In this document: positions 3,119 through 35,050 of the stretch, piece after piece
How the letters are laid out: each line of letters opens with the position of its first letter
How positions within the stretch are numbered: the first letter of the stretch is position 1
Source of the DNA: an uncultured delta proteobacterium
GTDB lineage: Bacteria > Desulfobacterota > Binatia > Binatales > Binataceae
Assembly: GCA_963756155.1 (NCBI GenBank)
Contig: CAVWMQ010000010.1
Span: 8,102 to 72,101 of the forward strand
Direction of reading: 5' to 3'
Length of the DNA: 64,000 nucleotides
The notes under the pieces: generated by a model
Told to the model about the DNA's origin: nothing
What the model saw: only the letters and a program-made list of their open reading frames with translations
Database searches by the model: none
Program-made: the position numbers and the translations under genes

Positions 3119-4678
3119 ATGCCTGAGATCGTGCTCGCGATCGATCAGGGCACCACCGGAACCACCGTGTTCGCGGTCGACGATCGCGGCCGGATACGCG
3201 GCCGCGCCTATCGCGAGATTCGCCAGTTCTATCCGCGTCCCGGATGGGTCGAGCACGACCCGCAGGAGATCTATCGCTCGGTCGTCGCGCTCGCGAAGAA
3301 AGCACTCAGCGCGGCGCGCGCGGGCGCCGGCGATTTGCGCGCCGTGGGCATCACCAACCAGCGCGAGACGTTCGTGGTCTGGGAGCGGCGCACCGCGCGC
3401 CCGGTGTATCGCGCGATCGTATGGCAGTGCCGGCGCAGCGCGGAGATTTGCGAGGCGCTCCGCGAGCGCGAGCCGGAGGTGGCGCGCCGCACCGGATTGC
3501 TCGTCGATCCTTATTTCTCAGGCACCAAGCTGAAATGGCTGCTCGACGCGAAGCCCGAGTTGCGCGCACGCGCCGCGCGCGGCGAGCTTTGCTTTGGCAC
3601 TATCGACACCTGGCTCATCTTCAAACTCTCGCGCGGCCAGGATTTTGTAACCGACTACACAAATGCGTCGCGCACGATGCTGTTAAATCTCGCGCGGCTT
3701 GAGTGGGACGACGCGATGCTCGCGATGCTCGAGGTGCCGCGCGAGATGCTGCCGACACCAGTGAGTTCGCGCGGTCCCATGGCGGAGGCGGCGCCCGGAA
3801 CTATCTCCTCCCGCGCGGTTCCGATCGCGGCAGTAATCGGCGATCAGCAGTCCGCGCTCTTCGGCCAGGGCGCCGTGAATCCCGGCGACTCGAAGGCCAC
3901 CTACGGAACCGGCGCGTTCCTGCTGATGAACACCGGCGCGGAGATGATCGCGTCGCGCAACCGGCTGCTCGCGACGGCCGCGCTGGGTCCGATGGGTGAG
4001 CCGAAGTATGCGCTCGAAGGGTCGGTGTTCATTGCCGGCGCGGCGATACAGTGGCTTCGCGACGGACTCAAGCTGATAGCGAAAGCGCCACAGAGTCTCG
4101 CGCTGGCGCGCAAAAGCGCACAAAAAAACCGCGACCGCACGAGTCCCTACCTGGTGCCGGCCTTCGTGGGATTGGGTGCGCCGCATTGGGACGCAACCGC
4201 TCGTGGCGCGATCGTGGGAATCACGCGCGGCACCACCAGCGCCGACATCGTGCGCGCGGCACTGGACAGTATCGCGTACCAGGTGCGCGATGTATTCGTC
4301 GCGATGGAATCGGACGCGGGGCATCCGCTGTCCGAGCTTCGCGCTGACGGCGGCGCGGCGGCCAATCCCTATCTGATGCAGTTCCAGGCGGATATTCTGG
4401 ATAAGTTGGTGCGCCGTCCTAAGGTCGCAGAGACGACTGCGATGGGCGCGGCGATGCTGGCCGGCCTTGCGGTTGGAATCTGGAAAACGCCGGCGGATCT
4501 CGCGGCGCTCGGACGCGGCGCCGACCTGTTCATACCGAAAATGGGCGCAGCGGAACGTGAACGGCTGCTCGCCGGATGGCACGACGCGGTGACGCGCGTG
4601 CTCAGCGGAGCGAACGCGAACTCGAACGCGAATGCGAAAATCAAGTTAGCCGCGAGCTCAAATCGGTCGCCAAGCTAA
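3119..4678 (+). CDS. glpK: glycerol kinase
   Basis: MPEIVLAIDQGTTGTTVFAV…GITNQRETFVVWER…DTWLIFKLSRG…GTGAFLLMNTG… are classic FGGY/glycerol kinase motifs. There is a ~25-aa C-terminal low-complexity tail (ANANSNANAKIKLAASSNRSPS). Confidence 0.9.
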   Translation: MPEIVLAIDQGTTGTTVFAVDDRGRIRGRAYREIRQFYPRPGWVEHDPQEIYRSVVALAKKALSAARAGAGDLRAVGITNQRETFVVWERRTARPVYRAIVWQCRRSAEICEALREREPEVARRTGLLVDPYFSGTKLKWLLDAKPELRARAARGELCFGTIDTWLIFKLSRGQDFVTDYTNASRTMLLNLARLEWDDAMLAMLEVPREMLPTPVSSRGPMAEAAPGTISSRAVPIAAVIGDQQSALFGQGAVNPGDSKATYGTGAFLLMNTGAEMIASRNRLLATAALGPMGEPKYALEGSVFIAGAAIQWLRDGLKLIAKAPQSLALARKSAQKNRDRTSPYLVPAFVGLGAPHWDATARGAIVGITRGTTSADIVRAALDSIAYQVRDVFVAMESDAGHPLSELRADGGAAANPYLMQFQADILDKLVRRPKVAETTAMGAAMLAGLAVGIWKTPADLAALGRGADLFIPKMGAAERERLLAGWHDAVTRVLSGANANSNANAKIKLAASSNRSPS

Positions 4679-18373: not shown

Positions 18374-21271
18374 TCAAGCTCCGGCGGCGCTGCGCAATGC
18401 CGAGCGCGCCTGCCGCCCGCTCTCGGGCAATCCAAACATCCGCCGGAGCTCCCGTCCCGTGATTGATTTGTCGGACCCCGCGACCGCCAGCGGTGCGCCC
18501 GCGGCGATCACGCGCCCGCCCTCATCGCCGCCCCCCGGTCCGAGATCAATGACATAGTCGGCGTTCGCGATGAACTCCAGGTTGTGCTCGATAACGACCA
18601 GCGTGTTGCCCTCGCTCACCAGGCGCCCGAGCACTTTGAGCAGGCGGCGGATGTCGGCGGAGCTGAGTCCGGTGGTCGGCTCGTCGAGCAGGAACATTCG
18701 CGGCAGCGGCTTACCGTCGCCGTCGAGAATCGCCGGTTCCAAATCGACCAGCAGGAAGCGCGCGAGCTTGAGCCGCTGCGCCTCGCCACCGGAGAGCGTC
18801 GAGGTGGTCTGCCCGAGGCGGACGTAACCGAGCCCGACGGCGGAGAGCGCGTTGAGGCGTTTGCCGATAGCGGGATTCTGCGCGAAGAACACGCGCGCTT
18901 CGTCAACCGTCAGATCGAGCACCTGGTTGACGTTCAAGCCGTGGAATCGGATCGCGAGGATGTGAGTCTGGAAGCGGCGGCCGTCGCAGGCCTCGCACTT
19001 GACCTCGAGGTCAGCCATGAAATGCATCTCGATGGTCACGGTGCCGGTGCCGCTGCATCGCTCGCAGCGTCCGCCGGCAACATTGAAGGAGAAGTGTCGC
19101 GCAGTGACTCCGAGCCGTCGCGCCTCGGCGCCGGAGGCGAACAATTTACGAATCTCATCGTAAATCTTGAGGTAAGTCGCGGGGTTAGATCGCATCGAGC
19201 GCGCGGGCAGCTCCTGCCCCATATGCACCAGTTCTCCAATCTGATCGAGTCCGTCAACCTGGTCGCATTCACCGGCCTCCGCCCCCCCAGCCTTGCCCCG
19301 TCGCTTGAGGTAGCCATTGTAGAGCACGTCCTCGACTAGCGACGACTTGCCGGAGCCTGAGACGCCGGTCACGCAGACCATCCGGCCGAGCGGAATCGCG
19401 ACGTCGATATTGCGCAGATTGTGTTCGCGCGCGCCGGTGATTCGGATCGCCGGGTCGCGACGGGTGAAGCGGCGCTCGCGCGCGATCGCGCGCATCATCA
19501 GCACGCGTCCCGGCGTCGCGATCATGCTCTCCAGCGCGGCCTTCCCAATCTTTCCCGCGTGCAGCAGACGGCCGCCCTCGCTGCCGCCGCCGGGTCCCAG
19601 CTCGACGACAAAGTCTCCGCCTTCGATCATGGTCGGATCGTGCTCGACGACGACTACCGTGTTATCGAGATCGCGCAGATGGCGCAGCACCGCGAGCAGC
19701 CGCCGCGCGTCGGAAGCGTGCAGGCCCACCGTCGGTTCGTCGAGCGCGTAGAGCGTGCCGACCAGCAGACTGCCCAGCGCGCTCGCGAGATGGATTCGTT
19801 GCGCCTCGCCGCCCGACAGCGTGCGCGCCTGCCGCTCGAGAGTCAGATAGCCCAGGCCGACCTCGGTGAGATAGCCGACGCGATTGCCAAGCTCGCGGAT
19901 CACGACGGCCGCGCGCGCCGCGATCGCCGGAATGCGCGCGATCTGACCGACCCACTCGGCGAGATCGCGCACCGCAAGTCGCCCGACGTCGGCGATCGAC
20001 ATCCCCGCGACGCGCACGTTGAGCGCCTCGGGCTTTAGCTTCGCGCCGCCGCAGGTGGGGCAGGTGACGAAGCGCCGATACTTGGCCAGCAGGATGCGGA
20101 CATGGGTTTTGTAGCGCCGTCCCTCGAGCCATTTGAAGAAGCCGCGGACCCCCGGCCACTGGTCGGGATCCCACGCGTCGCGCGGACCTTCTTCACCATC
20201 GAGCAGCCAGCGCCGCTCCTCGTCGGTCAGCTCGCGAAACGGCGCGCTGGTACGGATCCGCCTGCGGCGCGCCAGCTTCATCATCAAGTCGTTCATCTCG
20301 CGATAAGCGGGCGTGCGCCACGGCGCGATCACTCCCTGGCGCAGCGACAGGTTCGGATTGGGGATGACTTTCTCGATATCGAGCTCGACGGTGCGTCCGA
20401 AGCCTTCGCATCCGGGGCACGCACCGAGCGGGCTGTTGGCCGAGAACAATGCGGGAGTCGGCTCGGGGAACGCGCTGCCGCATTGTGAGCAATTGAAGCG
20501 CCGATCGAAGTCGAGCGCGGCTCCGGGGTGCATCCGTCCGTTGTCACGCTCGACCCGCACCGTGCGCGCGCGGCCGCCGCCCAGGTAAAAGGCCTTCTCG
20601 AGCGCCTCGCGCACGCGCTCGTTCTCGGAGACGCCGTTGACCGCGACGCGATCGATCACGACCATCATCGGGCCGGCCAGCGCCGGCGTTCCATTGCCGA
20701 AGCCCGCGGCGAACTCCAAAGTTTCAGTCACGGCGTCATTGGCGAACAGGCGATGGTACCCGTTCTGGATCAGGAACGCCGCGGCGTCCGCGAGCGTGCG
20801 CGATCCGGTCTCGAACGGCGCGAGGAACAAGTACGCGCCCGGCGCCGCGAGCACGCGCGCGCTTGCATTGTCGACGCTGTCGCGGCTGACCTCGTTGTCG
20901 CATCGCGGACACACCGTCCGTCCCACGGTCGCGAAGAGCAGCCGCACGTAGTCGCTGATTTCAGTTACCGTCCCGACGGTCGAGCGCGCATTCTTGATGG
21001 TGTTCTTCTGCCGCAGCGCGAGCGCCGGCGGTATCTGCGAGATGGAATCGACGTCGGGCCGTTCCATCCGCTCCAGGAACAGACGCGCATAAGTGGAAAG
21101 ACTCTGCACGTAGCGGCGCTGGCCCTCGGCATAGAGCGTGTCGAACACGAGGCTCGACTTGCCGGAGCCGGACACGCCGGTCACCACGGTGAGTTTGCCG
21201 CGCGGAACGTCGAGCGAAATATTGGCGAGATTGTGAGTGCGCGCTCCGCGGATACTGATCGAGCCGTCCAA
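18374..21271 (-). CDS. uvrA: excinuclease ABC subunit A
   Basis: 965 aa: MDGSISIRGARTHNLANISLDVPRGKLTVVTGVSGSGKSSLVFDTLYAEGQRRYVQSLSTYARLF… Two ABC ATPase modules and zinc fingers (CPRC…CSQC; CERC…CEAC). Confidence 0.95.
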   Translation of the reverse strand: MDGSISIRGARTHNLANISLDVPRGKLTVVTGVSGSGKSSLVFDTLYAEGQRRYVQSLSTYARLFLERMERPDVDSISQIPPALALRQKNTIKNARSTVGTVTEISDYVRLLFATVGRTVCPRCDNEVSRDSVDNASARVLAAPGAYLFLAPFETGSRTLADAAAFLIQNGYHRLFANDAVTETLEFAAGFGNGTPALAGPMMVVIDRVAVNGVSENERVREALEKAFYLGGGRARTVRVERDNGRMHPGAALDFDRRFNCSQCGSAFPEPTPALFSANSPLGACPGCEGFGRTVELDIEKVIPNPNLSLRQGVIAPWRTPAYREMNDLMMKLARRRRIRTSAPFRELTDEERRWLLDGEEGPRDAWDPDQWPGVRGFFKWLEGRRYKTHVRILLAKYRRFVTCPTCGGAKLKPEALNVRVAGMSIADVGRLAVRDLAEWVGQIARIPAIAARAAVVIRELGNRVGYLTEVGLGYLTLERQARTLSGGEAQRIHLASALGSLLVGTLYALDEPTVGLHASDARRLLAVLRHLRDLDNTVVVVEHDPTMIEGGDFVVELGPGGGSEGGRLLHAGKIGKAALESMIATPGRVLMMRAIARERRFTRRDPAIRITGAREHNLRNIDVAIPLGRMVCVTGVSGSGKSSLVEDVLYNGYLKRRGKAGGAEAGECDQVDGLDQIGELVHMGQELPARSMRSNPATYLKIYDEIRKLFASGAEARRLGVTARHFSFNVAGGRCERCSGTGTVTIEMHFMADLEVKCEACDGRRFQTHILAIRFHGLNVNQVLDLTVDEARVFFAQNPAIGKRLNALSAVGLGYVRLGQTTSTLSGGEAQRLKLARFLLVDLEPAILDGDGKPLPRMFLLDEPTTGLSSADIRRLLKVLGRLVSEGNTLVVIEHNLEFIANADYVIDLGPGGGDEGGRVIAAGAPLAVAGSDKSITGRELRRMFGLPESGRQARSALRSAAGA

Positions 21272-21278
21272 ACCGGAA

Positions 21279-21500
21279 TTACCTGGGATCGCTGAGCGGC
21301 CGCGCTTTCTTTTTGCGCTCGCCGGGAAATTCGTCGGCCACTTGCGCGTAGAGCGCGCGCAGTTTTACGTCGAACTGCGCCTCGAGCCGCTTGGTCTCGG
21401 CAGTGCGCTCAGCGCCCGGCAGATTGGTGATTTTGCCGAGCGCATCCTCGAGTTGCTGCATCAGGCGGTTGCGCGCGATGAGATATTGATAGCCGTCCAT
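21279..21500 (-). CDS. small hypothetical protein immediately upstream of uvrA (possible co-transcribed)
   Basis: 73 aa, helical, charged: MDGYQYLIARNRLMQQLEDALGKITNLPGAERTAETKRLEAQFDVKLRALYAQVADEF… The stop is 8 nt before the uvrA ATG. No family assignment. Confidence 0.35.
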   Translation of the reverse strand: MDGYQYLIARNRLMQQLEDALGKITNLPGAERTAETKRLEAQFDVKLRALYAQVADEFPGERKKKARPLSDPR

Positions 21501-21570
21501 ATGGTGTTCAAAACCTCAAATTCCAAACCTTCAGATTATAGGTTATCTTTGACTGGGCTAACAACCAGAA

Positions 21571-27174: not shown

Positions 27175-27272
27175 CTACCGGCGGTTTGAAGGTCTCCTCT
27201 CAGCAGCCCGTCGCGCGCAATCGCGAGGGCACGCGACCGCTTGGTAGCCGCGTGATCGCGCGGCTTAGCTAA

Positions 27273-27965
27273 TCAGTAGAACCACTTGTCGTGGTCCCAG
27301 CGGAAAATTTCGGTGGTGTGCGTATCGCTTAAGGCTTTGGGCGCAGCGTGCTTAGCCTCGTCCTCGGTCTTGCCGATGATGTAGTAGTTGAATTCCTCGT
27401 AGGTCAGCTTGCCGATCGCAAATCCGCCCTTGGACTCATGCGACTCGCAGCTCGTGACCTTGCCGTATCCGGTGTAGGTCGCGGTGTCCCATCCGTCTTT
27501 GATCTGGAAGGCGAGGTGATTGAGATTATTAGTGGTCCGATCGCGCAGCTTCTGCTCCCATTCGTGGCAGAAATCGGGAAACAGGGCCGCGGCTTTCTTG
27601 AACTCGCGATCCATCTTCATCCGCTCGGGCGTGAGCTTGGCGATGACCGCGGTGACCTTCTGATGAAGGGCGGACCTGGCCGGTGACGGCTGGGCCCTGG
27701 CCTCGAGCGACTTTTGAGCTTCCGAAGAGATCGAACGCACGGTCGCCTGCTCTCCCATCTTATTGGTGGTGCTGGGCGGCGGATGTGCCACAGCGGTGGC
27801 GCTTTCAGGTGACGCGGCTGCGTCGGGGGAAGCCGCTGTGTCCGAGGCCTGAGCCTGCGGTTGGGAAGGTTGCTCTTGGGCCCGCACGGCCGATGGCCAT
27901 AGCATTCCGGCGATTGCCAGCGCCGCGAGGGCCGACCTGATTCCCTGCAATTGTGACGGCGTCAT
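27273..27965 (-). CDS. secreted hypothetical protein
   Basis: ATG at about 27965. Signal peptide MTPSQLQGIRSALAALAIAGMLWPSAVRA. Low-complexity Pro/Ala/Ser linker then a ~120-aa C-terminal domain (…FPDFCHEWEQKLRDRTTNNLNHLAFQIKDGWDTATYTGYGKVTSCESHE…). GC is lower than the surroundings. Confidence 0.5.
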   Translation of the reverse strand: MTPSQLQGIRSALAALAIAGMLWPSAVRAQEQPSQPQAQASDTAASPDAAASPESATAVAHPPPSTTNKMGEQATVRSISSEAQKSLEARAQPSPARSALHQKVTAVIAKLTPERMKMDREFKKAAALFPDFCHEWEQKLRDRTTNNLNHLAFQIKDGWDTATYTGYGKVTSCESHESKGGFAIGKLTYEEFNYYIIGKTEDEAKHAAPKALSDTHTTEIFRWDHDKWFY

Positions 27966-28063
27966 AGTCGGTCTGTATAGCAATTGATCATCGGGATGTT
28001 CAATAAAGGAGCGCCCCTGATGCCCAGCGCCGCCGGTAACAGAGCGATACGACACTACCTACG

Positions 28064-28849
28064 CTAGTTTTCCGGCATCAGCTCGACGCGGCGATTCTCC
28101 GCGCGGCCCTCCGCAGTCTGATTGCTCGCGAGAAACGCGGTCTTGCCATAGCCATGCGCGAGGAGCCGGTCCGGCCCGACGCCCTGCGCCACGAGATAGG
28201 CGGCGACAGCCTGCGCGCGCTGTTCGGATAGTTTCTGATTGGAAGCGGGGGAGCCTACGTCGTCGCAGTAGCCGTCGATGTTGATGTGCAGGTTCGGATG
28301 CGTTTTGAGAATGTCGGCGGTTTCGTCCAGCACCGCTTCGTCACCCGGGCGGACGTCCGCTTTGGCGGGATCGAAGTGCACGCCGCGCAGCACGATCTTC
28401 TCGTGTGCCGGGGTATTTTTCGGAGGCACCGCGGCGGGCGTCGTCGCTGCGAGTACCGCCGGCGTGGGAGCCGCCTCCAGCGGCGTCGGGGCCGGGGTCG
28501 CGCCTGCTGAGTTGGCCAGCTCGGGCCATGGGCGCTCGTGCGAACCAACCAGCGGATCGCAATAGTCGTGGGCGATCAGCGCACCGAGCGATGCGCCCAT
28601 CGCAGCGCCACCCGCGCCGGCGGCGGCGATGGCACCCCCGTCGTGGCTGGCGGCGCCGGCGGCGACTCCAAGGCCGAGGCCCGCGCCGATTCCAGCGCCG
28701 ATCAGTCCGCCCGCTAGCCCGCACACTCCCCAGGTACGCTGCTCCATCCCGCATCCCGACAGAACCACCATCAGCGGGGCGCATAGCAGCGCGCAGCAGA
28801 CAACGGTCCACACCGATGGCCGGCGCGAGGGCGTGGTTGGAGGGCTCAC
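28064..28849 (-). CDS. OmpA family lipoprotein (Pal-like peptidoglycan-binding)
   Basis: Lipobox (VVLSGCG), glycine-zipper segment (GLAGGLIGAGIGAGLGLGVAAGAA), Pro/Thr/Ala linker and a C-terminal OmpA_C domain (…NIDGYCDDVGSPASNQKLSEQRAQAVAAYLVAQGV…NRRVEL). Confidence 0.85.
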   Translation of the reverse strand: MSPPTTPSRRPSVWTVVCCALLCAPLMVVLSGCGMEQRTWGVCGLAGGLIGAGIGAGLGLGVAAGAASHDGGAIAAAGAGGAAMGASLGALIAHDYCDPLVGSHERPWPELANSAGATPAPTPLEAAPTPAVLAATTPAAVPPKNTPAHEKIVLRGVHFDPAKADVRPGDEAVLDETADILKTHPNLHINIDGYCDDVGSPASNQKLSEQRAQAVAAYLVAQGVGPDRLLAHGYGKTAFLASNQTAEGRAENRRVELMPEN

Positions 28850-28973
28850 ACTCAGTTGATTCGCAAAATTGCCGGGGTGTGTCGATTCGATAGCGGAAGG
28901 GACAAATGTTGACGGCCGCGGCCCCGTGATCGGGGCCGCGGCCGCAGCTAGCAGTCAGTAACCGGACCGGGTC

Positions 28974-29684
28974 TTACTGCACCGGCACCAGTTCGACACG
29001 ACGGTTCTGAGCGCGTCCTTCCGGCGTGTCATTGGTCGCGACGAAATCAGTCTTGCCGTAGCCGTGCGGAACCAGCCGGCTGGCAGGAATTCCCTGCTCG
29101 ACCAGGTAATTCACGACGGCGTTGGCGCGGCGATCCGACAGCTTGAGGTTGTAGGCATCGCTTCCGATCGAATCGCAGTACCCGTTCACGTCGACCGTGA
29201 TGTTCGGATTCGCCTTCAGGGTCGCGGCGGCTTCATCCAACACAGCCGCGTCGCCCGGACGAATGTTGTACTTGTTGAAGTCAAAATGCACTCCACGCAG
29301 CACTATCTTCTGCGCCATTGGCGGCGGCGGAGGAGGTGGCGGCGGTGGAGGCGGTGGCGGCGGAGGAGGTGGTGGCGGCGGAGGCGGCGGAATCACCTGA
29401 TCGCACAGATAGTGACCCAGCAGCGTTCCGAGACCAGCGCCGATTACCGCGCCAGCAACGCCAGCGTACACGCGGCGATCATGATCGCTGGAGTTGCGAT
29501 GGGTTTGCGTAACGATCGCGATACCCGAAGCGGCGCCGGCGCCGGCGCCCAGCAGGCCCCCGATTATCGCGCACGATCCCCATTCACGCGGCTGCTCGAG
29601 GTATGCGCAACCTCCCAAGGAGCTGGCAAGTAATGCAGCACCAGCAACCGAAGCGATTGCTTTTAACGCGGACTTCCGTCTCAT
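28974..29684 (-). CDS. OmpA family lipoprotein paralog with 26-residue poly-proline linker
   Basis: Lipobox (LASSLGGCA), glycine zipper, an uninterrupted P26 run, then an OmpA_C domain (…DVNGYCDSIGSDAYNLKLSDRRANAVVNYLVEQGI…NRRVEL). Confidence 0.85.
   Translation of the reverse strand: MRRKSALKAIASVAGAALLASSLGGCAYLEQPREWGSCAIIGGLLGAGAGAASGIAIVTQTHRNSSDHDRRVYAGVAGAVIGAGLGTLLGHYLCDQVIPPPPPPPPPPPPPPPPPPPPPPPPMAQKIVLRGVHFDFNKYNIRPGDAAVLDEAAATLKANPNITVDVNGYCDSIGSDAYNLKLSDRRANAVVNYLVEQGIPASRLVPHGYGKTDFVATNDTPEGRAQNRRVELVPVQ
29318..29400. repeat. simple-sequence repeat (GGN)n on plus strand encoding the poly-Pro linker of the OmpA paralog
   Basis: About 80 nt of ggc/gga/ggt triplets (…ggcggcggtggaggcggtggcggcggaggaggtggtggcggcggaggcggcgg…). 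It is a slippage-prone tract inside a CDS. Confidence 0.8.
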
Positions 29685-30297
29685 GAGCTCCTCCTCACCC
29701 GAGTGCGTGTTGGCGCGCTGCCGAACCTACAACGCGCGCGCTATGTCCCCCAACGGCCCCGAAGCGTAGTGTTTCGAGGCGATAAGCACAATCTAAGCGA
29801 ACTTTTTCTGGTCCCGAATATCCCCGTTCGAACTTCGCCGAACCCATCGGCGCGTCGTTCCGCGACGCTCGTCCACCGTCATCGCGGAGCCGATTCTTTC
29901 GCTTTTCTAATCCCCCAGTTCCCCAGCAAACGCTTCGTGAGCCCAATTGAGCGGGAAATATAGTTATATTTGGGACAGGAATGCAACTGGGCCGGTCGTA
30001 TTTTCCAGCCTTATGCCGAATATTTGTCGATCTTGGTAAACTCTGAGTAATACGTAAGCAACCGCCTCCAGCCATGAGGGAAGGGGCCGAAACCGAGGAT
30101 TCACGAATGAATCAGGAAGCAAAATTCGCGTGCAACCTCGGCTCGTAGCCGAGGCGAGGGCGGGGCGCATGCGGGTGAAAATGCGACGGCCGCATCGTCG
30201 CCAAGCGTGGCAGAATCGATGCGGCCGCCGTCGATGACCTGAAGCGTCGGAGGAGGTTCAGGTCGCAGCCCTAGGCAGTCGAAGTACTACTTGAATA

Positions 30298-31353
30298 CTA
30301 CTTCCTGTCTTCGCTGTGACCGCCTTCGGATTTTCCCTCCGATCTCGACTGCTGCTGATGAGCGGCTTGCTCGTGCTGCGGCTGCTGATGCGAGGCCTGC
30401 GCCTGGCTGTGCTGCGTACGCGACTGCTGCTCGGCGCGCGCCTGCTGTTGCTGCCCGCGATTGGCCTGCTGCTTATGGGTCGCATGCTGCTGAGTCGCAG
30501 TCGCATGCTGCTGCGTTGCGGTCGCGCGCTGCTGGCGGTCCTGCGCATTGCTTGCCTGCTGTTGACGATTCGCGTGCTCATGACGACTAGCCTGCTGCTT
30601 GCGGGTCGCTTCCTGTTGCGTTGCAGTCGCGCGCTGCTGACGATCCTGCGCGTTGCTGGCCTGCTGCTGGCGATTCTGCTGCTGCTGACGCGTGTTCTGC
30701 TGCTGGCGGGTCGCCTCCTGTTGCACCGACGCCGCGCGTAGGTTGCGATCCTGTTCGTTCATCGCGAGGTTCTGGTTGTTCATCGTGGCTCGATGATCAG
30801 AAATTTCGGTGTGCCTGGCCCAGTTCTGATGCTGGCTCATCCAGTTAGGATGATTGCTCGCCACCCAGCCCGGATTCTGGTTGTACCACCATTCGCCGTA
30901 GTGCCACGTGTGATTGGTGTCGTAGGCGCCGTCCTGCGCGAGCCACAGCGGGTTGAACGAAACCCATTGCGGATGATTGCTATAGAAGAAGTCGGGATTG
31001 TTCTGATGCCACCAATAGGCGTCGTGCCACACGTTGCTGTTGTCATAGTCGCCATAGCTCATGAGCTGAGCCCACATCGCGGGATTCGCGTTCAGGTAGG
31101 CCTGCAGCGCGGGATGTGAGGCGCGCCAGTTGGCGTTGTAGATCAGCTCCGGATTCTGCGCGAGTTCGTTGCCGACCACGGGATGATTGGCCAGGAACTG
31201 TCCAAAGCTCTCGCCCATCGGGTCGGAGAACCAGGGGTAGTTGACCGGGAAGCTCAGTACCTGCACAGATGGCGGTTCTCCATACTGTGCCCACGCCGGC
31301 GTTGCGAGTGCCAGCGCGAAAACCGCGCCGAGCACAATTGCGGATCGTTTCAT
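30298..31353 (-). CDS. secreted repeat protein: Trp/Asn-rich N-terminal domain plus Gln-rich tandem-repeat C-terminal tail
   Basis: Signal peptide MKRSAIVLGAVFALALATPAWA. Repeated (N/S)NHP.W / NP..W motifs (…NHPQWVSFNPLW…NPGWVASNHPNWMSQHQNW…). The C-terminus carries ~35-aa tandem repeats (NRQQQASNAQDRQQRATATQQ…), also visible as DNA direct repeats at 30350-30700. Confidence 0.6.
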   Translation of the reverse strand: MKRSAIVLGAVFALALATPAWAQYGEPPSVQVLSFPVNYPWFSDPMGESFGQFLANHPVVGNELAQNPELIYNANWRASHPALQAYLNANPAMWAQLMSYGDYDNSNVWHDAYWWHQNNPDFFYSNHPQWVSFNPLWLAQDGAYDTNHTWHYGEWWYNQNPGWVASNHPNWMSQHQNWARHTEISDHRATMNNQNLAMNEQDRNLRAASVQQEATRQQQNTRQQQQNRQQQASNAQDRQQRATATQQEATRKQQASRHEHANRQQQASNAQDRQQRATATQQHATATQQHATHKQQANRGQQQQARAEQQSRTQHSQAQASHQQPQHEQAAHQQQSRSEGKSEGGHSEDRK

Positions 31354-31422
31354 TTCAAAACCTCCGGTTTCACAACCTGATGCCCGCAGCGGCGCGGCGG
31401 ACCAGCAGGCCGGAAATATCGT

Positions 31423-31475
31423 CTCTGTAGGGACTGCGTCTCGGGTAGGGACTGGATCTCTGTAGGGACAGTATC
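31423..31475. promoter_or_regulatory. array of three tandem 18-bp direct repeats (core GTAGGGAC) ~160 nt upstream of uvrB
   Basis: tctctgtagggactgcg t / ctcgggtagggactgga t / ctctgtagggacagtat c, with an exact 18-bp period. Candidate transcription-factor binding array. The third unit reads CTGT-N4-ACAG. Confidence 0.5.
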
Positions 31476-31637
31476 GAGCCTACCACCCGCCGTCAGCCGC
31501 GTCGCTGAACGGTTCGCAAGGTCACCGCGAATCGCGGGTGATTCGTGACAATTGGTACCTCAGGGCACGGCTAATACTCATGCGCCCGCATCCCTGCTAA
31601 ACTGGGTCAACTATCCGGCTGAACTGGAGCGATTGCG

Positions 31638-33872
<2,235 letters not shown>

Positions 33873-33882
33873 TCACCCACGC

Positions 33883-33926
33883 GATCGTGCGAGCGGCACG
33901 CGCGATGCGCGCCGCTCGCACGATCG
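33883..33926. terminator. bidirectional terminator hairpin between uvrB (+) and SDR gene (-)
   Basis: Perfect 16-bp inverted repeat cgatcgtgcgagcggc … gccgctcgcacgatcg with a 13-nt loop. It starts 11 nt after the uvrB stop. Confidence 0.6.
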
Positions 33927-33989
33927 CTCCCCGCCCGCCGCGCCGCGCGCCGAAACGGCGCGCGCCGCACCAAATCGCCTGCGACTCGC

Positions 33990-34832
33990 TCAGCCCTCGA
34001 ACGACGGCCCCATGAATCCGCCCGGCAGGATGAATCCCGCCCCATCCGCCGCCTGCGCGGCCTGGTAACTGGCCCCCAGCGTCAAGCCGCCGTCGACCAC
34101 CAGCGCATGACCGGTGATGAATTCCGCCTCGTCGCTGGCCAGGAACAACGCCGCGTTGCAGATGTCCTCGGGATGTCCTGCGCGCGGGTACGGCTGCGAC
34201 TTCGCGAGCATCTGCTCGAGCGCTTCGGACACGCCGGGCTGGTTGCGATGCAGGATCGGAGTGTTGATGCCGCCCGGGCAGATGCAATTGACCCGGATCC
34301 GATCCTTGCCGAACTCCAGTGCCGCGCTGCGCGTCAGGTTCACCACTCCGGCCTTCGCCGCGCAGTAGGCGTGCAGACTCGCGTAGCCGCGGATGCCGGC
34401 GACCGACGCGGTCGAGACGATAGAGCCGCCGCCGCGCTTGCGCATCTCGGACACCGAGTACTTGATTCCCAGGAACACGCCGCGCAGCAGCACTGCCTGC
34501 GAGCGGTCCCAGTTCTCCACCGTAATTTTTTCCAGCGGCCCAATGGCCCCGCCGATTCCCGCGTTGTTGTACGTGATGTCGAGGCCGCCGAATTCCTTGA
34601 CCGCGCGATCGATCATCGCCTTGACGCCTTCCTCGGCCGACACGTCGGTTTTCTGAAACACCGCGCGTCCGCCGTTCTCCTTGCAGTCGCGCACCGTCGC
34701 CTCGCCGCCTTCCGCGTTCAGGTCCGCGACCACCACCGCGGCGCCTTCGCCGGCGAAGCGAATCGCCGTCGCGCGTCCCATCCCGCTGGCCGCACCGGTG
34801 ATGACCGCAACTTTTCCATTCAGTCTGCCCAT
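33990..34832 (-). CDS. SDR family NAD(P)-dependent oxidoreductase
   Basis: MGRLNGKVAVITGAASGMGRA… (TGxxxGxG)…NNAG…catalytic YxxxK (YCAAK). Confidence 0.85.
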   Translation of the reverse strand: MGRLNGKVAVITGAASGMGRATAIRFAGEGAAVVVADLNAEGGEATVRDCKENGGRAVFQKTDVSAEEGVKAMIDRAVKEFGGLDITYNNAGIGGAIGPLEKITVENWDRSQAVLLRGVFLGIKYSVSEMRKRGGGSIVSTASVAGIRGYASLHAYCAAKAGVVNLTRSAALEFGKDRIRVNCICPGGINTPILHRNQPGVSEALEQMLAKSQPYPRAGHPEDICNAALFLASDEAEFITGHALVVDGGLTLGASYQAAQAADGAGFILPGGFMGPSFEG

Positions 34833-35050
34833 GTCGAATTACCTGCCTCGTTAAAATTGAGAGCGCCTCGGCGCTCTGCTTTCTCATCCGACTTGCTAGC
34901 ACCAAGGAACCCGCACGCGCCAACCGCCGTCGGGTCCAGCGCAATGCCGCTCAAACCACATGAACGTAACTGCGCGTCGATGCCGCGGTTCATGCGGGCA
35001 TGATCTTCTATTGCTAAAGAATAAAAAAACTTTACCGTTAAACTATTCGG

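Follow-up and report, generated by a model that had tools for sequence, protein, structure and literature searches.

The window, by which we mean the whole 64-kb stretch of DNA that was analysed, derives from an uncultured Candidatus Binataceae bacterium of the phylum Binatota, a phylum for which we know of no cultured member; the assignment to this family agrees with the homologues of its UvrB. Within it, a 284-bp intergenic region separates uvrB, on the plus strand, from a divergently transcribed gene specifying a secreted protein, and this region contains an array of three tandem repeat units of 17–18 bp each. Around it lie genes of the OmpA family, uvrB and a short-chain dehydrogenase gene, a chromosomal housekeeping and envelope setting in which synteny is kept across the Binataceae. 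In all Binataceae loci examined an orthologue of the secreted-protein gene is divergent from uvrB. The genes and repeat units are as follows:

30298–31353, minus strand: divergent secreted-protein gene (signal peptide, Trp-rich, Gln-rich tail, family unassigned), the likely target of the array
31421–31434, plus strand: repeat unit 1, GTCTCTGTAGGGAC, which adjoins the candidate -10 hexamer of the minus-strand gene and is unchanged in contig 29 of the MAG SMAG_U263
31438–31452, plus strand: repeat unit 2, GTCTCGGGTAGGGAC, with one G more than in SMAG_U263
31456–31469, plus strand: repeat unit 3, ATCTCTGTAGGGAC, the next two bases being AG, which gives CTGT-N4-ACAG
31638–33872, plus strand: uvrB

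The secreted protein, of 351 residues, has an N-terminal domain rich in Trp in addition to its signal peptide, and ends in a repetitive tail rich in Gln. It had no match in Pfam or NCBIfam; the core of its AlphaFold prediction is confident, yet no fold in the PDB matches it. The alignment of the family contains 16 invariant columns, mostly Trp. The C-terminal half is encoded by 105-bp tandem repeats (30487–30753) specifying Gln-rich segments, whereas the tails of its relatives are His-rich. When closer orthologues were sought, the next-best full-length matches were at most 59% identical, and two partial matches proved to be paralogues without arrays. Upstream of paralogues in L160 (1310–1345) and L161 (1069–1100) there is a conserved fragment resembling a tRNA 3' end, GATTCGAGTCCGGCTCTGATCCAGCCCA; in L161 it adjoins IS1595 transposase fragments, which suggests that some members of this protein family ride integrated elements.

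Two other elements of the window were recorded. Between the convergent uvrB and short-chain dehydrogenase genes lies a long GC-rich inverted repeat (33880–33930; GCGATCGTGCGAGCGGC ... GCCGCTCGCACGATCGC), probably a bidirectional terminator without a T-run. Upstream of the uvrA gene (18374–21271, minus strand) are an ORF of 70 codons and a promoter close to consensus, TTGTTA-18-TATAAT (within 21290–21570), and an AACCT-N9-AGGTT inverted repeat overlapping its -10 region is a candidate operator.

Structure of the repeat array

On the plus strand the array (31421–31471) reads cGTCTCTGTAGGGACtg cGTCTCGGGTAGGGACtg gATCTCTGTAGGGACag, with the core 8-mer GTAGGGAC exact at 31427–31434, 31445–31452 and 31462–31469. 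These are the three units reported in the preliminary description, which was also correct about the distance to uvrB (the array lies 167–217 nt upstream of the ATG at 31638) and about the CTGT-N4-ACAG outline of unit 3. The exact 18-bp period given there has to be amended. The cores are spaced 18 and then 17 bp apart and the TCTC heads (31422, 31439 and 31457) 17 and then 18 bp, the two series differing because unit 2 has an extra G; Tandem Repeats Finder returned a period of 17/18, 2.9 copies, 82% matches, 5% indels and a score of 70. Among themselves the units differ by approximately 20%. What that description omitted is the divergent gene, from whose ATG (31353) the array is separated by just 68 nt (68–118 nt for the array as a whole).

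A fourth copy of GTAGGGAC is present in the window at 4143–4150 on the minus strand, and there are no others; the total of four compares with a mean of 0.59 in dinucleotide shuffles, of which 0/100 reached four. Any 8-mer occurring three times inside 60 nt was found at three sites, the array included, against a mean of 0.2 in shuffles, the remaining two being a coding repeat rich in GGC and the palindrome of a terminator. Because the array recurs base for base in L001, L005 and L116, three independent assemblies of this species, an assembly artefact is ruled out; the copy number is three in 5/5 assemblies. The array is real and non-random. A dyad symmetry within the unit (GTCnCT..AGnGAC, 5/7 positions) was also considered; by our own estimate it is non-significant once every possible centre is allowed.

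Separation of the array from uvrB

Among other readings, a non-canonical SOS box upstream of uvrB had been suggested for the array. As a LexA or response-regulator site it would act on uvrB from -120 to -170. In the window species it does lie next to uvrB, within the upstream intergenic region, and unit 3 has the CTGT-N4-ACAG outline. The evidence that bears most directly on this reading comes from SMAG_U263, for which three further features are needed:

30086–31525: segment with the secreted-protein gene, block A and the array, absent at the uvrB locus of contig 32, the equivalent of 30179–31658 being translocated to contig 29
31379–31409: block A, GC-rich, 31 nt, invariant at all aligned columns of both lineages and unique in the window
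31550–31569, plus strand: start of the proximal uvrB promoter, AATTGGTACCTCAGGGCACG, kept in the window, contig 29 and contig 32, with the array outside it

When 185,579 species genomes were scanned with the strict pattern of two adjacent units, one match was relevant, contig 29 of SMAG_U263 (L006; DATDGX010000029.1). This is the orthologous locus, at which all three units are found upstream of the orthologous secreted-protein gene (71% protein identity). A second match, L007 from a member of the Gaiellales, is an 18-bp repeat within coding sequence. The 90%-identity cluster of the window UvrB also includes a SMAG_U263 protein, and this one is encoded on contig 32 (L159; DATDGX010000032.1). 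Contig 32 is collinear with the window on both sides, through the OmpA-family genes (27272–30054, 83% identity) and through uvrB and the short-chain dehydrogenase gene (31550–34929, 88–89%); for the two flanks of its uvrB locus the range of identity is 82–89%. The segment listed above, approximately 30086–31525, is missing from contig 32. Its intact, syntenic uvrB keeps the proximal promoter from AATTGGTACCTCAGGGCACG onwards, and no array motif was found in the contig. The order on contig 29 begins with the terminator hairpin of the secreted-protein gene and the gene itself; block A and the array follow, then another uvrB promoter copy with the first eight uvrB codons, and from there the sequence runs into the tail of an unrelated gene. 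In this foreign context uvrB is a dead 8-codon stub.

The two uvrB promoter copies of SMAG_U263 are 78–86% identical to each other and have derived characters in common relative to the window, which indicates that the duplication took place within the SMAG_U263 lineage and is old. From these alignments we conclude that SMAG_U263 has undergone an old duplicative translocation followed by a deletion at the syntenic uvrB locus; the array is intact despite the old split. Contigs 29 and 32 both belong to one short-read MAG, for which a binning or assembly artefact is formally possible; since any genome needs an intact uvrB, and since the promoter copies share derived characters, both contigs fit a single genome.

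Several details of the rearranged DNA were noted in passing. In contig 32 (2855–3021) about 1.44 kb was lost between two short stretches that resemble each other (GATTCACGAA and GATTCGTGACAA of the window), and in contig 29 (6112–7647) the translocated unit is fused to a C-terminal fragment of another gene. The -10/leader region of uvrB contains a 22-bp tandem duplication (CCTGCTAAACTGG and CCGGCTGAACTGG; 31593–31605 and 31615–31627 in the window, 2966–2977 and 2988–2999 in contig 32) which is common to the clade and absent from three other Binataceae (L002, L003 and L004), in which a single CCTGCTAAArTG is found 12–14 nt before the uvrB ATG.

By this comparison the array co-segregates with the secreted-protein gene and not with uvrB, the gene having moved as a complete transcription unit. 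An array maintained beside a dead uvrB stub, a working uvrB without the array and a uvrA without the motif together remove the SOS/uvrB reading. The same three Binataceae, with 84–87% UvrB identity, share the CCTGCTAAArTG element near the uvrB ATG with the window, and upstream of their uvrB there is neither an array nor any intergenic tandem repeat. At uvrA we confirmed the earlier remark that no similar motif precedes the gene, since 21272–21570 contains no GTAGGGAC even with one mismatch; recA and lexA are outside the window. In the sequence available, none of the repair genes proved to have a further copy upstream. Within the intergenic region, more than 75 nt separate the array from the conserved uvrB promoter block downstream, but it abuts the -10-like hexamer of the divergent gene.

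The alphaproteobacterial-type LexA box is GTTC-N7-GTTC; in the window this pattern is no more frequent than by chance and is absent at uvrA and uvrB. Two relatives have a sequence of this form about 40 nt upstream of the uvrB ATG, GTTC-N7-GTTC in L002 (1947–1961) and GTGC-N7-GTTC in L003 (approximately 1108–1122). Overall, we regard a role of the array at uvrB as largely refuted and very unlikely. A tempting mis-annotation is thereby corrected: proximity to uvrB does not make an SOS box, and a natural rearrangement parts the two.

Conservation of the array and alternative explanations

Between the window and contig 29 the array is identical at 50/51 positions, the sole change being one G fewer in unit 2 of SMAG_U263, where the period is therefore 17 and 17 bp. 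Apart from this G each unit is identical to its own orthologue, despite the difference of about 20% among units. Across the region the two lineages show 79% nucleotide identity overall. In a global alignment the block 31380–31476 is identical at 92/97 positions, against 74% for the non-coding flank 31477–31594, 72% for the whole downstream flank 31477–31637 and 81% for the adjacent coding DNA (Fisher test, p = 3e-6 versus the flank 31477–31637 and 6e-4 versus the coding DNA). Fourfold-degenerate sites of the secreted-protein gene are 46/69 = 67% identical and another non-coding stretch 75%. At 27% divergence, the binomial probability of finding no substitution in 51 nt is 1e-7. The differences in the conserved block are concentrated in the linker, 12 nt long, that joins block A to the array and has three substitutions; strain L005 has an extra A in this linker. 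A variable linker within a conserved block indicates two constrained elements rather than a recently transferred tract.

The array is thus under purifying selection. We take the element to be functional, and to be a local control element of the neighbouring secreted-protein gene rather than a regulatory site for DNA repair. The suggestion that the repeats are a site for a multimeric regulator thus survives in part: near-invariance against a neutral identity of 67–75% points to a functional, probably protein-bound cis-element, while the link to uvrB and the SOS response falls away.

Tandem duplications are common at the locus (the 22-bp duplication in the uvrB leader and the 105-bp repeats in the neighbouring gene), which counts for the array as a product of functionless replication slippage. 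Units that differ from each other by about 20%, and are each identical to their orthologue, with a copy number of three in all five assemblies, do not fit such an origin. Nor does a recent short recombination tract account for the similarity, since differences located in a linker inside the block are unexpected after a fresh transfer. We consider this explanation, in either form, quite improbable.

Further arrays and an enrichment of the motif, which the preliminary description had proposed to look for, did not emerge: in the 64-kb window outside the array the exact core, the core with one mismatch and the 15-mer with up to three mismatches all occur at chance level. In a metagenome scan for the core pattern the matches listed were mostly unrelated tandem repeats or GTAG REPs, and the only relevant locus among them was L116, of the same species. 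A viral scan gave chance or coding repeats only, and Rfam, applied at gathering and relaxed thresholds to the window and ten metagenome loci, identified tRNA only. Literature searches with the GTAGGGAC 8-mer retrieved just primers in unrelated papers, while those on Binatota retrieved ecological MAG papers only, with no regulatory work and no LexA motif described. The array is a local, single-promoter element with no sign of a wider system.

A different pair of repeats was encountered in L010 (3510–3537), where two copies of GTAGGGACAG lie 18 bp apart with conserved flanks; they are also present in L012, L040, L047, L084, L100 and L106. On these contigs of 70% GC the repeats are located about 75 nt upstream of a gene for a 123–135 amino acid RsbW/SpoIIAB-like anti-sigma-factor kinase, oriented to that gene as the Binataceae array is to its own. 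This may be coincidence.

GTAG/CGTC-tagged REPs consist of a stem of 5–13 bp beside the tag with a short loop, admit G.T pairs and may form tandem clusters (Di Nocera et al. 2013, PMC3733652). The units could be a small head-to-tail cluster of degenerate palindromes of this type, landed once and left as a relic or co-opted as a promoter element. Each carries GTAG followed by GGGAC-N3-GTCTC, which could form a 5-bp, G.T-containing stem (GGGAC-TGC-GTCTC), and CGTC is present in two units. On closer inspection, GGGAC-TGC-GTCTC and GGGAC-TGG-ATCTC form five pairs including one G.T, the lower limit of the published range (PMC3733652), and unit 3 is without a partner arm. Stems as short as 5 bp, many G.T pairs and reiteration in tandem are all on record for GTAG REPs (PMC3733652), and tandemly reiterated heads were likewise seen in the GTAG-headed perfect hairpins that make up 30/120 of the metagenome matches listed. 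Such an origin is nevertheless improbable. The array is not dispersed: in the 64 kb taken together with roughly 30 kb from related loci it occurs once, and the strict pattern had one orthologous match in the species genomes. Its stems are at the margin of what is described, its position between divergent genes is one in which REPs are seldom found (PMC3733652), and a relic would not remain 98% identical across lineages with about 30% neutral divergence.

The metagenome hairpins are of some interest in themselves. Among the matches listed, each of the 30 (e.g. GTAGGGACAGGTCGCGACCTGTCCCTAC) is preceded by one to five tandem copies of the head and left arm, and GTAGGGAC is the head of many such GTAG-tagged palindromic repeats. 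The loci include L008, L076, L082, L090, L101, L107, L108, L117–L119, L122, L020, L022, L023 and L071, the last with REPIN-like inverted pairs (paired REP elements) bearing several heads on each side. These hairpins fit the published tandem GTAG-tagged REPs, although it is striking how regularly the head and left arm, and nothing else, are duplicated.

The conserved 95-nt block might alternatively act as RNA, either as a plus-strand hairpin RNA or through repeats in the 5' leader of the secreted-protein mRNA. In the first version, unit 1 would pair with unit 3 in a hairpin extending over 31384–31512 (plus strand) with unit 2 at its tip, yielding a cis-antisense or small RNA that possibly presents three AGGGA motifs, 17–18 nt apart, to an RNA-binding protein. 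The plus strand of 31380–31515 (136 nt) has a predicted folding energy of -64.8 kcal/mol (z = -3.15 versus shuffles), and the array alone, on the same strand, one of -25.1 kcal/mol (z = -2.1). The pairing relies on G-U pairs that are workable on the plus strand only, the array indel is located in the predicted apical loop, two flank substitutions convert G-C to G-U, and the conservation reaches the spacers and block A, as RNA would predict. Compensatory changes, however, number 0/41 pairs, the SMAG_U263 version shows no folding advantage over shuffles (z = -1.25), and the outer stem has its right arm in DNA of low conservation (70–77% identity). No plus-strand promoter or terminator was found, and Rfam gave for 31250–31750 noise-level matches only (E = 4–8) at relaxed thresholds and none at the gathering threshold. 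The mRNA-sense (minus-strand) fold has a z of 0.14. Moreover, a hairpin of this kind arises automatically from any quasi-palindromic direct repeat. An RNA function of the block is, on balance, a minor possibility.

Taking the structural alternatives together, it is rather doubtful that the 95-nt block (block A and the units) is something other than a protein operator, namely a small structured plus-strand RNA or a co-opted GTAG palindrome cluster. Were it so, the AGGGA/GUAGGGAC motifs 17–18 nt apart would act at the level of RNA or single-stranded DNA, for instance by titration of an RNA-binding protein or as antisense to the secreted-protein promoter, and the block would be a lineage-specific riboregulator in an uncultured phylum.

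A candidate operator and its relation to known systems

The array is most likely an ordinary local promoter or operator element of the secreted-protein gene, not an SOS box. The promoter to which it may belong is marked by one further feature:

31415–31420, minus strand: candidate -10 hexamer, GATATT (GAAATT in SMAG_U263), of a putative weak promoter (7/12)

Read along the minus strand, the array is followed by the candidate -10 and then by variable DNA; block A, which is invariant, comes next, and after it a ribosome-binding site, GGAGG, and the ATG. The candidate -10 is flush with the array, at a constant distance, and the DNA downstream of the hexamer varies in both sequence and length. A -35-like GAGACG is located in unit 2, 16–17 nt upstream of the candidate -10, and the single array indel falls upstream of this putative -35, so that the 17-nt spacing between the two is kept. 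A sigma-70 consensus scan of 31200–31800 and of the contig 29 copy revealed nothing stronger than this weak candidate. The use of a near-consensus sigma-70 promoter at uvrA, and of a poor promoter under three conserved sites here, suggests a factor-dependent promoter. Two other promoter classes were considered by eye: a sigma-54 reading of TGGTAC-N-GGCAC has the wrong spacing, and ECF-type readings were unconvincing.

If GATATT (31420–31415) is the -10, transcription would start near 31408, placing the GTAGGGAC cores at about -22, -40 and -57, with GAGAC of unit 2 as a poor -35. Block A would then lie in the mRNA, and is probably the 5' untranslated leader of the secreted-protein transcript. 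We tentatively favour, at somewhat short of even confidence, the view that the three units are adjacent sites for an oligomeric, sequence-specific DNA-binding regulator, overlapping this weak promoter. With a protein as the ligand, either direction of regulation could be accommodated: the bound protein might repress, as unit 1 would lie in the promoter spacer, or activate, with units 2 and 3 at class II and class I positions.

The absence of a fold signal in minus-strand RNA counts for an operator of this kind. On the other side, the spacers between the cores are invariant too, which exceeds the need of a typical operator; with only two lineages carrying the array, there is no positional variation by which contact bases might be told from spacers. 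No second site was found: across the 185,579 genomes the strict two-unit pattern had its one relevant match at the orthologous locus, and the motif is not enriched in the window, so that any regulon would comprise a single promoter. The more distant secreted-protein orthologues have no upstream tandem repeats, no regulator gene is adjacent to the array, and a period of 17–18 bp corresponds to 1.7 helical turns, which places successive sites off one face of the DNA.

Transcriptional control in Binatota is undescribed so far, and a footprint as sharp as this one provides a usable handle, since a 50-bp duplex could fish out the putative binding protein. The array also shows where control is exerted over a family of Trp-rich secreted proteins that is abundant, uncharacterised and without a known fold.

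Plasmid and phage iterons are likewise direct repeats of 17–22 bp in arrays of three or more; the present array is without a replication-initiator gene, origin features or a plasmid or phage context, and the iteron-like character once suggested for it was not borne out. It resembles LexA operators in lying upstream of a nucleotide-excision-repair gene and in the CTGT...ACAG outline of unit 3, but the spacing is N4 as against N8 in the gammaproteobacterial box, and the array is absent at uvrA and at the uvrB of other Binataceae and is separable from uvrB. With the GTAG/CGTC REPs it has in common the GTAG tag, what may be a short stem with G.T pairs and a 3-nt loop, and the head-to-tail reiteration known from some families (PMC3733652). 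A REP family, by contrast, numbers tens to hundreds of scattered copies, for the most part downstream of genes, whereas here we have one locus between divergent genes, with stems of 5 bp, strong orthologous conservation and a copy number far from that of a REP family. The ARG boxes of ArgR, the three subsites of LysR-type regulators and the pho boxes of PhoB similarly consist of two or three adjacent imperfect sites of 14–18 bp, situated at about -20 to -60 of a weak promoter and with a footprint conserved between related species. Tandem operator arrays of these three types repeat every 10–11 or 21–22 bp, i.e. in whole turns, as do the sites of OmpR/PhoB- or LytTR-type regulators, in contrast to 18/17 bp in the window and 17/17 bp in SMAG_U263; the period thus tells against the response-regulator array that had been proposed. 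Set beside these systems, the array is a familiar kind of feature in a new example, from a phylum without a described cis-element.
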